A stretch of DNA of 20,464 nt from a virus (lineage: Duplodnaviria > Heunggongvirae > Uroviricota > Caudoviricetes), in the IMG/VR virus record IMGVR_UViG_2667527839_000003, positions 1 through 20,464 of that record. One strand, written 5' to 3'. Shown piece by piece: positions 2,438 to 5,406 of the stretch (position 1 is the stretch's first letter; every line of letters begins with the position of its first letter). Position numbers and translations under genes: made by a program. The notes beneath the pieces were generated by a model. The model made no database searches. It was not told the origin of the DNA and was given only the letters and a program-made list of their open reading frames with translations.

Positions 2438-2791
2438 TTATGCCTCGCTTGTTACAGTCGTCTGGCCGTAGATTGTGTCAATGGAGGAAGTGAAGGTGAC
2501 GCGACGGCTGGTGCCGTCATAATTGGTATCGAAGGAAAGAATCGACAGAACGCCCGGTGTATCCTGTATGCGTTCGCGTATAGCCAGGATGTAGACATCT
2601 GATCGCTGCTTCCCAAGCACCGACTGAACATACGGCGTGCCTTCCGTCAGATCGAGAAACCACTGACCGCGCCACAGCTCGAAGCGGGTTTTTACGGCCT
2701 GGGCGACACATTCCGGACTGTCGATAAGGAAAGTATCGTCACCCTGGCCGAAAGTGTAATCGCCTTCAGTATCTTCGCGACGGTATCGCAT
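2438..2791 (-). CDS. Small baseplate wedge protein (GPW / gp25-like position)
   Basis: 117-aa ORF between the spike and the J-like protein. Its ATG at 2791 shares one nucleotide with the upstream stop. Size and position match P2 gpW / Mu gp46. Confidence 0.55.
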   Translation of the reverse strand: MRYRREDTEGDYTFGQGDDTFLIDSPECVAQAVKTRFELWRGQWFLDLTEGTPYVQSVLGKQRSDVYILAIRERIQDTPGVLSILSFDTNYDGTSRRVTFTSSIDTIYGQTTVTSEA

Positions 2792-3531
2792 TATTGCGGC
2801 CCTCCGGTAGTTCCCCCGCCAGTCTGTACTCCGCCATGTTTATGCGTGGCGACACTGATACCAGAAGCTGTTACGTCATTCGTTACCGTCACCGGCCCAA
2901 GCATCGTCGCAGTACCGCCGCTTTCGCCCATTCCCTGAGACAAGTTGCCATTAATCGTTACGTTGCCGTTCAGCGTGATAGTCGGGGATGTGATTGTCGT
3001 TCCACCTTCAGCCGTAGCTGTAAGCTGGCCCGGTGTTTTAATGGTGATGTTATGTCCTGCGGCGACTTCTACAAACGCCGCACCATCATCGGTTCGCAGC
3101 TGCGCGGCGCTGGTACTGATACCGCTGATTTTCCGTGCTTGCGACTGCGGGCCAACGATGGCGAACGCATCAGATAAGTCATGCTGGCGCGGGTCGACGG
3201 TCTCCTGAACGCCGCCGCTCTGCCACCAAAAATCGATGCAACGGTCAGCAAAAATCAGGAGACACTCGTCGCCTTCTTTTACCGGAAAAGTCAGCGTGCA
3301 ACCGCCGCCGCGCGGAAAGATAACCGGCACATCCACCAGCGGTTTTAATTCGGTAGAGCCATCGCCAACAATACCGCGAAGCGCTACCTCTACCGTGCAG
3401 GTTACAGCGTCAGGATCGAACGACTGAATGATGCCAGGCATTGCTACGCGCATTTGGGTAGACACTGAATCGGCAATGGCCTGGGCGGTCTGCTGCTCGC
3501 CGCCGATCTGTGATTGAGTTGGAATTGGCAT
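2791..3531 (-). CDS. Baseplate central spike protein (P2 gpV / Mu gp45-like)
   Basis: 246 aa. N-terminal region (VDVPVIFPRGGGCTLTFPVKEGDECLLIF) looks like the gpV-type OB-fold domain; C-terminal third is Gly/Thr-rich with short repeats (TITSPTITLNGNVTINGNL, GGVQTGGGTTGG) typical of a spike beta-helix. GGGG Shine-Dalgarno-like sequence about 6 nt upstream of ATG 3531. Confidence 0.7.
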   Translation of the reverse strand: MPIPTQSQIGGEQQTAQAIADSVSTQMRVAMPGIIQSFDPDAVTCTVEVALRGIVGDGSTELKPLVDVPVIFPRGGGCTLTFPVKEGDECLLIFADRCIDFWWQSGGVQETVDPRQHDLSDAFAIVGPQSQARKISGISTSAAQLRTDDGAAFVEVAAGHNITIKTPGQLTATAEGGTTITSPTITLNGNVTINGNLSQGMGESGGTATMLGPVTVTNDVTASGISVATHKHGGVQTGGGTTGGPQ

Positions 3532-3542
3532 AAAAACCCCAT

Positions 3543-3566
3543 AAAAAAAGCCGCTGTATGCGGCTT
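3543..3566 (-). terminator. Rho-independent terminator downstream of the exported-protein pair
   Basis: Minus-strand RNA reads AAGCCGC-AUACA-GCGGCUU: a 7-bp stem (plus 3548-3554 pairing with 3560-3566) and 5-nt loop, running into a U-tract (plus A-run 3543-3549). It lies between the stop of the 128-aa gene (3585) and the spike gene RBS/ATG (3531). Confidence 0.6.
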
Positions 3567-3584
3567 ATCTAAAACATGTATATT

Positions 3585-3971
3585 TTAACCTATCTTATAA
3601 AGGTCAACTAATTTTAAAAAACCACCACTACCACAAGCTGTAAACCTAATAAAATAAGGCTCACCAATATTAATCATGCTATTAACTATATCGTTATCAT
3701 TTTTTGATAATTCTTCAAAGCCAGTAGGAATGACAAAAACTTTACTACCAACACCCTGGAATCTTATTAATTTTATAGTGGCTCCACTGTCAGAATACTG
3801 TGTTCCTTTTGCCACTGCCAAACCTTCATGAAGTTCACACCCCTCAAGATTGGCGTCGCTCAGTCCCTTCACTGACTGGCTACCCGTCAATTGATCATAA
3901 CTTATCTTAACTTCTGCATTCGAAATGAAAGATGTAAGCACCATCCCTAGCATAAGTAAAATTCGAATCAT
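3585..3971 (-). CDS. Exported small protein of unknown function (moron), AT-rich
   Basis: 128-aa ORF with an N-terminal Sec-type signal peptide (MIRILLMLGMVLTSFISNA then EVK). Two Cys in the mature part. Strong RBS (GAGGAAAAA before the ATG). About 37% GC by my hand count over 3601-3960, against 53-62% in flanking genes. Confidence 0.7.
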   Translation of the reverse strand: MIRILLMLGMVLTSFISNAEVKISYDQLTGSQSVKGLSDANLEGCELHEGLAVAKGTQYSDSGATIKLIRFQGVGSKVFVIPTGFEELSKNDNDIVNSMINIGEPYFIRFTACGSGGFLKLVDLYKIG

Positions 3972-3990
3972 TTTTTCCTCGATGTAGTAA

Positions 3991-4341
3991 TCAGTTAACT
4001 TTTATACAGTCGTAAGTAGCATACTGACGTGGAGCGTTCATGTTTGCTTGCAGCCACTGAGCGTTGAGAATGGCTTTGCCGTTACGCTTGATGTATTCGA
4101 GCCCTACCCACCGGCCAGGCTGGTCAGTAGCCATGCGCCATTCCATCTTAATGTTCTCGTAGTCTTCTTTTTGCTTAAGGAACGTTACCTTCTGACTTTC
4201 AGGCTTCGCACCGTTAATGCGTGCCCATCCATCATTTGTCGGGCTCGTGCCCAAGTGGAAAGGCCCACACTGGGAATCAGCATGAGCCACGCCCGCCAAG
4301 GCAAAAGAGCTGCAAGCAATCATCAGGATGAGTTTTTTCAT
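3991..4341 (-). CDS. Exported small protein of unknown function (moron)
   Basis: 116-aa ORF with N-terminal signal peptide (MKKLILMIACSSFALAGVAHA then DSQ; AXA-type cleavage site). Mature protein has Cys near each end (QCG near the N-terminus, YDC near the C-terminus). About 50% GC by hand count. ATG lies 3 nt after the stop of the upstream 353-aa gene with no obvious Shine-Dalgarno sequence. Confidence 0.7.
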   Translation of the reverse strand: MKKLILMIACSSFALAGVAHADSQCGPFHLGTSPTNDGWARINGAKPESQKVTFLKQKEDYENIKMEWRMATDQPGRWVGLEYIKRNGKAILNAQWLQANMNAPRQYATYDCIKVN

Positions 4342-4344
4342 TTT

Positions 4345-5406
4345 TTAAAACGTCCGGTTAAGTGATGCGTTACTCTGCAAATCGCGGCTGCCACGCGCGA
4401 AGCACATCAAATCCATGTACCACGCCTGACCTCTGGTGTCGCCAGTATAGTCGATAGCTTTGACGATATAAACGCCATCCGTCGCAATGCTGGCAGCCTG
4501 TGACGTCGTACCGATCAGCACACGGTTGCCGTTCTCTTCTGTTTCGGTGATACGCCCGGGCGACTGTGCGATTTCGCTATTGCCGAGCGCGACGCGGTAC
4601 ACCGAAGCCTGATCGAGCTGGATAAGACCATTAATACGGATGTTTGGGTTTATCAGGCACCGCACGTTTACGCCGCCGCCCATCGTTTGTTGCGGCATAC
4701 CGATCAGGCCAGTATCGGCATTCAACACAATGGCTTCGTGAATATATTTATCTTCAGGCACCATCTGGACCTGACCATCCACCAGTTGCCATGTTGCTTT
4801 ACACTGCGCAGCAATATTATCCATCACGTTGCGGGTGGATGAGTAAATCGCGCGGCCACGAGGAAACACGGTATCAGGAAAGTCACCGGTAATGCCCTGC
4901 GTCACGCCGAACGCGTTGAAATCCTGCATAGTCGCCCGGTGCAGGTCCGCAACGGTATAACCAGCGGCAAGCGTGGTGATGGTAGTCGCGTAGAGGAACG
5001 CTTCGTGGTTACTGATGGCCTGAATCAGCACCCAGGAATCGGTGATGTTGTCCTTCCCGGTGACGGTGAAGCGAATATCACCGTCAAATATCAGGCCGTA
5101 GTTCTGACCGTTCACCTGCCCTACCTGGTCTGGTGAAATCTCCCGGGCGACACCAACCTGGCTCGCATCAACATCCGGCGCAATACCGTCATACCCGGCA
5201 ATGATGCGAATTTTTGCAAACTCCTGCCCCAGTATCTTGTTCGTGGTATCGGTCGAAAGGTTGTAAATTTTCACGTTCGCCACTCGCGGCCAGCGTGTAT
5301 CTGCCCACTCGATCTGGAACGTGACCTTAAAATCAGACAGGGAAACGCCCTGCCCGTTCTGGTCCAACAGTTGCAGCTCAAAATGGCGCATCCAGTTAAG
5401 AGACAT
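4345..5406 (-). CDS. Baseplate hub-region protein (P2 gpD / Mu gp44 position)
   Basis: 353-aa ORF between the post-tape-measure proteins and the spike. Assignment is positional and by size; I see no diagnostic motif. Confidence 0.5.
   Translation of the reverse strand: MSLNWMRHFELQLLDQNGQGVSLSDFKVTFQIEWADTRWPRVANVKIYNLSTDTTNKILGQEFAKIRIIAGYDGIAPDVDASQVGVAREISPDQVGQVNGQNYGLIFDGDIRFTVTGKDNITDSWVLIQAISNHEAFLYATTITTLAAGYTVADLHRATMQDFNAFGVTQGITGDFPDTVFPRGRAIYSSTRNVMDNIAAQCKATWQLVDGQVQMVPEDKYIHEAIVLNADTGLIGMPQQTMGGGVNVRCLINPNIRINGLIQLDQASVYRVALGNSEIAQSPGRITETEENGNRVLIGTTSQAASIATDGVYIVKAIDYTGDTRGQAWYMDLMCFARGSRDLQSNASLNRTF

Follow-up and report, generated by a model that had tools for sequence, protein, structure and literature searches.

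The IMG/VR record IMGVR_UViG_2667527839_000003 (positions 1 to 20,464, a stretch of 20.5 kb hereafter called the window) carries, between the baseplate hub gene and the gpV spike gene of a contractile-tailed phage, two small open reading frames (ORFs) on the minus strand, ORF-A and ORF-B, whose coordinates and translations we confirmed as they had been given in an initial annotation. That annotation took both genes for foreign cargo acquired separately at one insertion hot spot. We observed that the two genes are of different natures: ORF-A is a fixed part of the conserved frame and no insert, and it is ORF-B that fills a variable slot. With a candidate promoter in the 3' end of the hub gene and a terminator placed before the spike gene, they probably constitute an accessory transcription unit of the moron type inside the baseplate operon, by which the exported ORF-A and a cargo protein would be expressed in the lysogen and act in the cell envelope.

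The kind of locus is known, from morons and from the hot spots of temperate phages; the locus itself and both protein families are new, and our literature search returned no paper describing a hot spot at the hub-spike junction, the ORF-A family or the ORF-B family. This junction is a well-delimited accessory-gene hot spot in a widespread prophage lineage of Enterobacterales and, since most of the cargo of its slot is unannotated, it lends itself in practice to the search for new defence or conversion genes. In addition, two uncharacterised families of exported proteins are here told apart.

ORF-A is a conserved gene and ORF-B the content of a variable slot

The window was compared with five E. 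coli prophages, Citrobacter phage Omnitron, Logan and NCBI contigs and 80 IMG/VR loci. An ORF-A homologue is present in 91/91 loci, the set being made of those containing the hub, an ORF-A homologue and gpV, and the locus L041, where the slot is empty, is among them. ORF-A is also kept in the phage isolates Mulock and Omnitron. The hub gene precedes ORF-A in every locus whose upstream sequence was covered and, in the 91 loci, the ORF-A start codon lies -12 to +4 nucleotides (nt) from the hub stop codon, often with an ATGA-type overlap. This order and this start coupling were seen in phages of E. coli, Salmonella, Serratia, Pantoea, Klebsiella and Rahnella. The composition of ORF-A is native, the same as that of its neighbours: its G+C content (GC) is 49.9%, with 56.4% at third codon positions (GC3), and the genes near it, encoding the plug, the Dit-like protein and the DUF2612 protein, have a GC of 50.3%, 50.4% and 51.1%, respectively, with a GC3 of 51-57%. 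The last ~15 codons of the hub gene (window 4345-4390 (-)) change class together with the ORF-A allele, and we therefore place a recombination breakpoint inside the hub gene, just past the conserved MCFARG. Examples of these hub tail classes are ...SRDLQSNASLNRTF, ...SRDLVNTSAMQKTNY and ...ARDLYSPKAMQGTTN.

From the ORF-A stop codon to the gpV ATG, the distance goes from 62 nt (the empty slot of L041) up to 4.6 kb, and 30 sequence types of slot were distinguished among the 91 loci. By local blastn against L002-L005, homology to loci with other cargo ends at ~3549-3555 on one side and at ~3990-4007 on the other. Since only positions 3556-3990 are replaced in relatives, ORF-B is hot-spot cargo and ORF-A belongs to the conserved frame. 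Indeed, ORF-B is clearly foreign in composition (GC 36.2% and GC3 27.9%, against a GC of 53.6% for the window), and it was found alongside at least four different ORF-A allele classes. All slot types have a GC of 0.34-0.46.

ORF-B fills the slot in 10 loci and a DUF4236 gene, on the opposite strand, in 15. The other contents include two Phd/Doc toxin-antitoxin types, an EACC1-domain protein, a P22-type antirepressor and HEPN-like pairs, for which the HEPN-like match is weak; in L010/L011, additional copies of ORF-A are found in the slot. Small exported proteins are the content of at least 5 of the 30 types (the ORF-B types, L058, L031 and L046). Membrane proteins were observed in the slots of L012/L015 (145-148 aa) and L044/L086 (124-187 aa); one type has an N-terminal transmembrane helix and a Cys-rich C-terminus with weak similarity to Phage_Mu_F, and the others have several transmembrane segments and belong to no family. 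Most of the slot cargo gave no PADLOC or Pfam match. On these comparisons, the hub-spike slot corresponds to the definition of a prophage accessory/defence hot spot.

Considered as a moron, ORF-B has both the position (in L041, ORF-A is followed by 62 nt and then by gpV) and the composition expected, and ORF-A has neither. The anomalous composition and the hot-spot origin that had been attributed to both genes thus hold for ORF-B and not for ORF-A, which in the synteny comparison turned out to be universally conserved with a uniform composition. It is very unlikely that both genes are foreign cargo acquired independently and stacked at one insertion hot spot: their GC does differ (0.50 vs 0.36), they are not homologous and recombination does exchange the allele classes of ORF-A, but separate acquisition is wrong because ORF-A is syntenic and start-coupled to the hub across genera, and ORF-A has moreover a native GC and GC3, occupies the same position in distant genera, subsists where the slot is empty and lies outside the segment that is replaced in relatives. 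That ORF-A and ORF-B are distant paralogues was ruled out by a hhalign probability of 3%.

Both proteins are predicted to be exported

Export was assessed by heuristics on the n-region, the h-region and the small-x-small site, together with conservation over the whole family. The Sec signal peptides initially proposed for both proteins are well formed, with K/R in the n-region, a hydrophobic core and small-x-small sites (AHA|D and SNA|E): ORF-A begins with MKK/LILMIACSSFALAGV/AHA|D, with a Kyte-Doolittle (KD) window value of 2.4, and ORF-B with MIR/ILLMLGMVLTSFI/SNA|E, with a KD window value of 3.0. In the ORF-A family, a simple heuristic test detected a signal-peptide-like N-terminus in 102/105 full-length members. 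Residues A19, A21 and D22 are invariant among close relatives and, across 89 aligned homologues, the AxA|D cleavage motif and two invariant cysteines are found together with highly divergent signal-peptide sequences, which drift freely and keep their physico-chemical pattern. The mature ORF-A protein has exactly two cysteines, C4 and C91 (Cys25-Cys112 in the full-length protein), which are invariant in the family. The mature ORF-B protein also has exactly two, Cys45 and Cys113, invariant or nearly so in its own family, and a CGSGG motif; its cleavage site is AxA-type and it has no lipobox. The cysteine counts had been given correctly, and the disulfide that had been deduced from them is supported by this conservation. 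As far as sequence can show, it is thus supported that ORF-A is a Sec-exported periplasmic protein cleaved by signal peptidase I and that ORF-B is an exported protein of a rare, unannotated family.

The ORF-A of the window has no lipobox, and Cys10 of its signal peptide is not conserved. A lipoprotein variant was found in an E. coli contig (GCA_053567535.1; L104:2416-3306 (+)): this protein of 296 aa, whose gene starts 1 nt past the hub stop codon, has the lipobox LVTG|C and contains the ORF-A barrel as its C-terminal domain. Therefore, the ORF-A family has soluble and membrane-tethered exported forms. The 190-aa N-terminal domain of the lipoprotein gave no Pfam or PDB match, and a public 101-aa gene call at this locus (P0114) is a mis-started, truncated form of the 296-aa protein.

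It is extremely improbable that ORF-A is a virion or assembly component, for instance a membrane-active protein of the tail tip or a spike chaperone, whose hydrophobic N-terminus would remain uncleaved. It is true that two structural genes flank its position, that it is coupled to the hub gene and that Pseudomonas phage E217 also has a non-virion gene, gp42, between hub and spike; however, the AxA|D site of ORF-A is conserved while the hydrophobic core drifts, the two invariant cysteines close the barrel, and one variant bears a lipobox instead. As for E217 gp42 (L099:7595-8128), which lacks a signal peptide and bears no relation to ORF-A, it was ruled out as an analogue of the latter. In E217, gp42 lies between hub gp41 and spike gp43 and is unmentioned in the text of the published virion-structure paper.

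ORF-A is fixed like a structural gene and evolves like a conflict gene

The structure model of ORF-A predicts with confidence an 8-stranded beta-barrel (predicted local distance difference test, pLDDT, 92.6) clamped by a disulfide, C4 and C91 being located on the first and last strands. No close structural relative was detected by fold search, and the nanobody and avidin matches returned by the searches with ORF-A and ORF-B (E ~0.005-0.02) were taken as chance. Among the nearest known folds we count the 8-stranded up-and-down beta-barrels of the avidin/calycin kind and, by analogy, the MliC/PliC lysozyme inhibitors; ORF-A differs from them in that it has no Pfam match to avidin or MliC. An outer-membrane barrel of the Lom/Ail/OmpX type, expected to have ~150+ residues, membrane-spanning strands and a C-terminal aromatic beta-signal, was ruled out: the mature ORF-A protein has 95 residues, its strands are of 3-9 residues and its C-terminus is ...CIKVN.

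ORF-A matches phrog_3443 (E=6e-45), whose function is listed as unknown, and gave no match in Pfam, NCBIfam, PADLOC or PDB sequence searches. The family comprises 155 clusters at 90% identity across Enterobacterales (Escherichia, Salmonella, Citrobacter, Enterobacter, Klebsiella, Serratia, Pantoea, Yersinia, Cronobacter and others), with members annotated solely as 'hypothetical' or 'secreted protein', and it is confined to one phage tail module in all contexts examined.

Conservation of ORF-A is concentrated in three segments, INGxKPExQKxTFLK (residues 20-35), RNGKAILN (65-72) and MxAPR (80-84), and the hypervariable parts are the beta1-beta2 segment (residues 6-15) and the loop 51-56. Over 42 loci, the mean pairwise protein distance is 0.30 for ORF-A and 0.50 for its first 22 mature residues, against 0.135 for the hub and 0.108 for gp25; only the fibre exceeds ORF-A in variability. 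Between ORF-A allele classes, synonymous divergence (dS) is saturated, whereas that of the flanking hub and gpV genes is 0.07-0.39, and the ratio of nonsynonymous to synonymous divergence (dN/dS) of ORF-A is at most 0.17 where computable. With a saturated dS between flanks of low dS, the alleles are therefore old lineages shuffled by recombination and did not arise by rapid, recent change in situ. This pattern is unusual: the gene is fixed like a structural gene and evolves like a conflict gene.

In Serratia aquatilis (CP173186.1; L010:478-5366), the slot contains six ORF-A paralogues or fragments of 122, 85, 117, 130, 75 and 121 aa and a Transposase_mut gene. The copies diverge mostly towards the N-terminus of the mature protein. 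As a whole, this layout is reminiscent of arrays of orphan immunity genes.

ORF-B belongs to a rare family present on several mobile elements

Among 5.8 billion proteins, only 4 clusters of ORF-B were found at 90% identity, all of them in the same slot. A profile search in a word-indexed database gave 8 matches, and thus little was gained, while an exhaustive HMMER search of 1.84 billion proteins gave 41 remote representatives, all with signal peptides. They share the pattern GC...QFS.SG.T...F.F....PTN..LSN....AN.FI..G..YF...CGSGG, and two of them are fused to Adhesin_E or PDZ domains. ORF-B and its remote relatives belong to no Pfam family, and ORF-B also gave no PHROG, NCBIfam, PADLOC or PDB sequence match. 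It is a real gene under selection since its dN/dS against Omnitron is 0.04-0.06, that is to say strong purifying selection.

Relatives of ORF-B were found on other mobile elements, namely Klebsiella phage RothD, a 98-kb Citrobacter plasmid with phage head genes and a Vibrio phage. In RothD (PP934564.1; L100:3992-4393 (+)), an intact 133-aa gene of the family, with a signal peptide, adjoins the tailspike gene on the opposite strand. Members of the ORF-B family have thus been captured by unrelated phages too. In the public RothD record, three tiny hypothetical coding sequences stand in place of the 133-aa gene.

Transcription signals outline one unit in a lambdoid late operon

As judged from its gene content, the lineage that hosts the locus consists of temperate myophages of Enterobacterales and has lambdoid regulation. 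Klebsiella phage Mulock, a relative at a greater distance, is described as a temperate myophage whose functions are lambda-like (PMC6856289). Over the region, identity is 97% with a prophage of E. coli AW1.7 and ~91-95% with Citrobacter phage Omnitron. The lineage was detected in 53/5426 complete genomes of E. coli and in 352 stretches of IMG/VR. The AW1.7 prophage carries the regulatory genes of a lambdoid backbone, namely N, a CI/LexA-like repressor, CII, nin and a Q-family antiterminator, and it also encodes a holin, an endolysin and spanins. In this prophage, the Q antiterminator is a pseudogene with an internal stop (L103, NZ_CP073624.1 1918000-1938000), and this copy is probably defective. 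Its nin region contains two IS66-family elements; ORF-A and ORF-B are still intact there.

In lambda, a terminator located in the Q-antiterminated late operon spares late transcription and stops transcripts begun without Q. In the window, a GC-rich hairpin of 7 bp and the T-run after it occupy 3548-3566, as had been noted initially; it had been regarded as belonging to the ORF-A/ORF-B pair, and this part has to be revised. Each of the 30 slot types has a GC hairpin and a T-run 8-20 nt ahead of the gpV ATG, the empty slot of L041 and the distant relatives (Mulock and the Pantoea, Serratia and Rahnella-type phages) included; the stems differ in sequence, and pairing is kept by compensatory changes. 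The terminator before gpV is thus a backbone feature of the whole lineage. By analogy with lambda, a terminator set against the gpV ribosome-binding site in every member would imply regulated read-through, by Q antitermination, in the midst of the baseplate genes.

The spacer between ORF-A and ORF-B is of 19 nt, contains the GAGG ribosome-binding site of ORF-B, confirmed 5 nt upstream of the ATG, and has no room for a promoter. A candidate promoter, the one coding-strand site flagged by a consensus scan, is located ~95 nt upstream of the ORF-A ATG. We analysed the synonymous codons of 80 unique hub sequences, kinship being ignored, and observed that hub residues 310-321 have the lowest synonymous diversity of any 12-codon window of the gene (mean entropy of 0.30 vs a median of 0.87), and that these residues coincide exactly with the candidate promoter. 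T321, whose ACT codon lies in the -10 hexamer, is the sole column with zero synonymous variation among 20 conserved Thr columns, and columns 324-339, near the candidate promoter, show normal synonymous variation. This is suggestive of a functional nucleotide element at the candidate promoter site.

The candidate promoter, ORF-A, the slot and the conserved terminator together outline one unit and, since the prophage is lambdoid with a Q antiterminator, this unit looks like a moron-type unit expressed in the lysogen. On the minus strand, the order would be the candidate promoter in the 3' end of the hub gene, ORF-A, the cargo slot (here ORF-B), the terminator and gpV. During lytic growth, the Q-modified RNA polymerase would pass the terminator, and ORF-A and ORF-B would be made along with the hub; in the lysogen, transcription from the internal promoter would cover ORF-A and the cargo and stop at the terminator, by which gpV and the later genes would be kept insulated. 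We infer the activity of the promoter, the expression in the lysogen and the exclusion function considered below from these arrangements.

The main rival explanation is a late lytic role, because the start coupling of ORF-A to the hub is universal. ORF-A would then be a late periplasmic factor co-translated with the hub, which might guard against lysis-from-without or secondary infection, limit the loss of progeny on debris or condition the envelope for lysis, and ORF-B would hitch-hike on the late transcript. The start of ORF-A close to the hub stop codon everywhere leaves no intergenic space for a promoter, ORF-B has only its short spacer and its ribosome-binding site, and the retention of ORF-A in the empty-slot phage, in Mulock and in Omnitron is as expected of a lytic-cycle gene. 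But in a Q-antiterminated operon, a universal strong terminator has no obvious role in this explanation unless non-antiterminated transcripts arise upstream; there is also the local synonymous constraint at the promoter-like site upstream of ORF-A, and the lysis genes lie elsewhere in the prophage. We consider this late role as rather unlikely.

A possible function in the exclusion of competing phages

The functions initially put forward were superinfection exclusion or receptor masking, inhibition of a periplasmic enzyme, and a host-fitness factor. If the unit is expressed in the lysogen, ORF-A and ORF-B would act in its periplasm or envelope and prevent competing phages from entering once these have adsorbed, with a specificity set by the variable beta1-beta2 face of ORF-A. 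Exclusion of competing phages at a periplasmic step is a tentative assignment, which we favour without calling it likely. We prefer it because ORF-A shows conflict-type evolution and stacking of paralogues, because conflict genes are present in the slot, and because there are precedents of envelope exclusion among tail genes, namely cor, llp and HK97 gp15. The last of these is a superinfection-exclusion protein encoded among tail genes according to the citing article (Cumby et al. 2012, cited in PMC11364771).

Several observations weigh against exclusion and against expression in the lysogen. A protein made only late in the lytic cycle would be just as compatible with the tight start coupling between ORF-A and the hub. 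Some nucleic-acid element other than a promoter could account for the synonymous constraint at hub residues 310-321, and phylogenetic independence does not hold among the 80 sequences. Searches by sequence and by structure placed neither protein in a known family of exclusion, immunity, inhibitor or adhesin proteins, and the AlphaFold2 (AF2) model of ORF-B is poor (pLDDT 61). Some ORF-B relatives are chromosomal in other Proteobacteria, in ordinary contexts, as compatible with a general role in the envelope as with one against phages. Lastly, over the 42 loci, the distances of ORF-A did not co-vary with those of the fibre and of the fibre C-terminus (rho of 0.00 to 0.06); with the SLT domain of the tape-measure protein, rho was 0.09-0.18, lower than for nearer genes, which is linkage decay only. 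For the hub, gpV, Dit, plug and gp25 genes, the correlation with ORF-A falls off with map distance, with nothing beyond linkage decay, and therefore no target is indicated.

These data give no support to a masking of the phage's own receptor or to an inhibitor of a muramidase matched in cis, and they do not bear on an action against incoming phages. The null result with the SLT domain is weak evidence, because co-variation in cis is not required of an inhibitor whose targets are incoming phages. ORF-A showed no homology to the periplasmic lysozyme/transglycosylase inhibitors MliC/PliC, Ivy and T4 Spackle.

Spackle of T4 is a periplasmic inhibitor of tail lysozyme, and Cor of phi80, N15 and T1 and Llp of T5 are outer-membrane lipoproteins which block FhuA; the cor and llp genes adjoin tail or receptor-binding genes. 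Like them, ORF-A and ORF-B are small phage-encoded exported proteins, and the dichotomy between soluble proteins and lipoproteins also exists within the ORF-A family. Unlike them, the ORF-A of the window has no lipobox and shows no co-variation with SLT or fibre, and there is no homology. A Cor/Llp-type lipoprotein was ruled out for the ORF-A of the window on its AxA-type site and its non-conserved Cys10.

Both proteins may instead be factors of lysogenic conversion or host fitness unrelated to exclusion, acting in adhesion, in resistance to serum or stress, or by binding a small ligand in the barrel. This we hold to be unlikely; a non-phage role in the envelope or in fitness is to be considered especially for ORF-B. 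The fusion of ORF-B relatives to Adhesin_E or PDZ and their non-phage chromosomal contexts in other Proteobacteria point in this direction, and the lambda morons lom and bor are precedents. ORF-A is, however, tied to one tail module, and its ancient recombining alleles and paralogue array are more typical of conflict interfaces than of envelope housekeeping.

Returning to exclusion, a more specific version would make ORF-A a new class of periplasmic specificity proteins, whose alleles decide which competing phages or tailocins cross the periplasm with their tail tip or their DNA. By analogy with orphan immunity-gene arrays, it would be a system of 'immunity alleles' that are stackable and either soluble or tethered as lipoproteins. 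This version is speculative and we would not expect it to be right, for the specificity class or for the allele system. If it is true, the slot would be a source of both envelope-acting and cytoplasmic defence genes, the ORF-B family included. More generally, a block of phage entry in the periplasm by either protein, if real, would lengthen the very short list of exclusion mechanisms acting at this stage, and it would bear on the prediction of host range for phage therapy against lysogens of E. coli, Klebsiella, Salmonella and Citrobacter.

Relation to known morons and hot spots

As with the lambdoid morons (lambda lom and bor, HK97 gp15), the accessory genes described here lie within a Q-antiterminated late structural operon with an intrinsic terminator at the end, the composition is foreign in the case of ORF-B, and the products are envelope-located. 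Unlike in these morons, the promoter is a candidate only and lies inside a coding region, and ORF-A is fixed, native and coupled to the hub, in contrast to genes that are absent in relatives. There is no sequence or structural similarity with them.

P2-like phages and P4 satellites have anti-phage hot spots, again according to the citing article (Rousset et al. 2022, cited in PMC11364771). The locus resembles them by its variable slot between conserved structural-gene flanks and by toxin-antitoxin and defence-like contents, with 30 types in 91 loci. It differs from them by its lineage, with an E217/Pam3-type baseplate and a lambdoid backbone, by its position at the hub-spike junction, and by its cargo, of which at least 5 of the 30 types are small exported proteins and most has no PADLOC or Pfam match.

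Organisation of the window

The features of the locus are collected in Table 1. Every gene of the window is on the minus strand, and the whole set amounts to the head and contractile-tail module of a phage. On the head side, we recognised the genes of the small terminase, the portal and the major capsid protein. The tail side encodes a sheath protein (DUF3383/E217 gp31-like), the tube, a tail chaperone and a tape-measure protein with a C-terminal SLT domain. On the baseplate side, the order is Dit-like protein, Pam3-type plug, hub, ORF-A, ORF-B, gpV spike, gp25-like sheath initiator, baseplate J and DUF2612 protein.

Table 1. Features of the hub-spike junction, in coordinates of the window
Feature	Position	Strand	Basis and remarks
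Baseplate hub gene, 353 aa	4345..5406	-	phrog_196 (E=3e-84), weak PF22759 match; upstream conserved flank
Candidate sigma-70 promoter, TTTATA-17 nt-TATACT	4444..4472	-	Consensus scan; within the hub coding sequence
ORF-A, 116 aa	3991..4341	-	Predicted signal peptide, residues 1-21 (4279-4341); mature protein of 95 aa, 3994-4278
GAGG ribosome-binding site of ORF-B	3977..3980	-	Direct sequence reading; 5 nt upstream of the ORF-B ATG
ORF-B, 128 aa	3585..3971	-	Predicted signal peptide, residues 1-19 (3915-3971); mature protein, 3588-3914
Variable cassette	3556..3990	.	Comparison with relatives; ORF-B and its ribosome-binding site, nothing else
Intrinsic terminator, AAGCCGC-ATACA-GCGGCTT and T-run	3541..3566	-	Scan; abuts the gpV ribosome-binding site
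gpV-type membrane-puncturing spike with apex motif	2791..3531	-	PF18352 (E=1e-41), PF18946; downstream conserved flank

A Rfam scan of the window gave zero matches. Elsewhere in the window, in the head-tail joining region, an ORF of 184 aa (12070-12624 (-)), which has no Pfam match, shows a GC3 of 0.42, against 0.56-0.70 in its neighbours.

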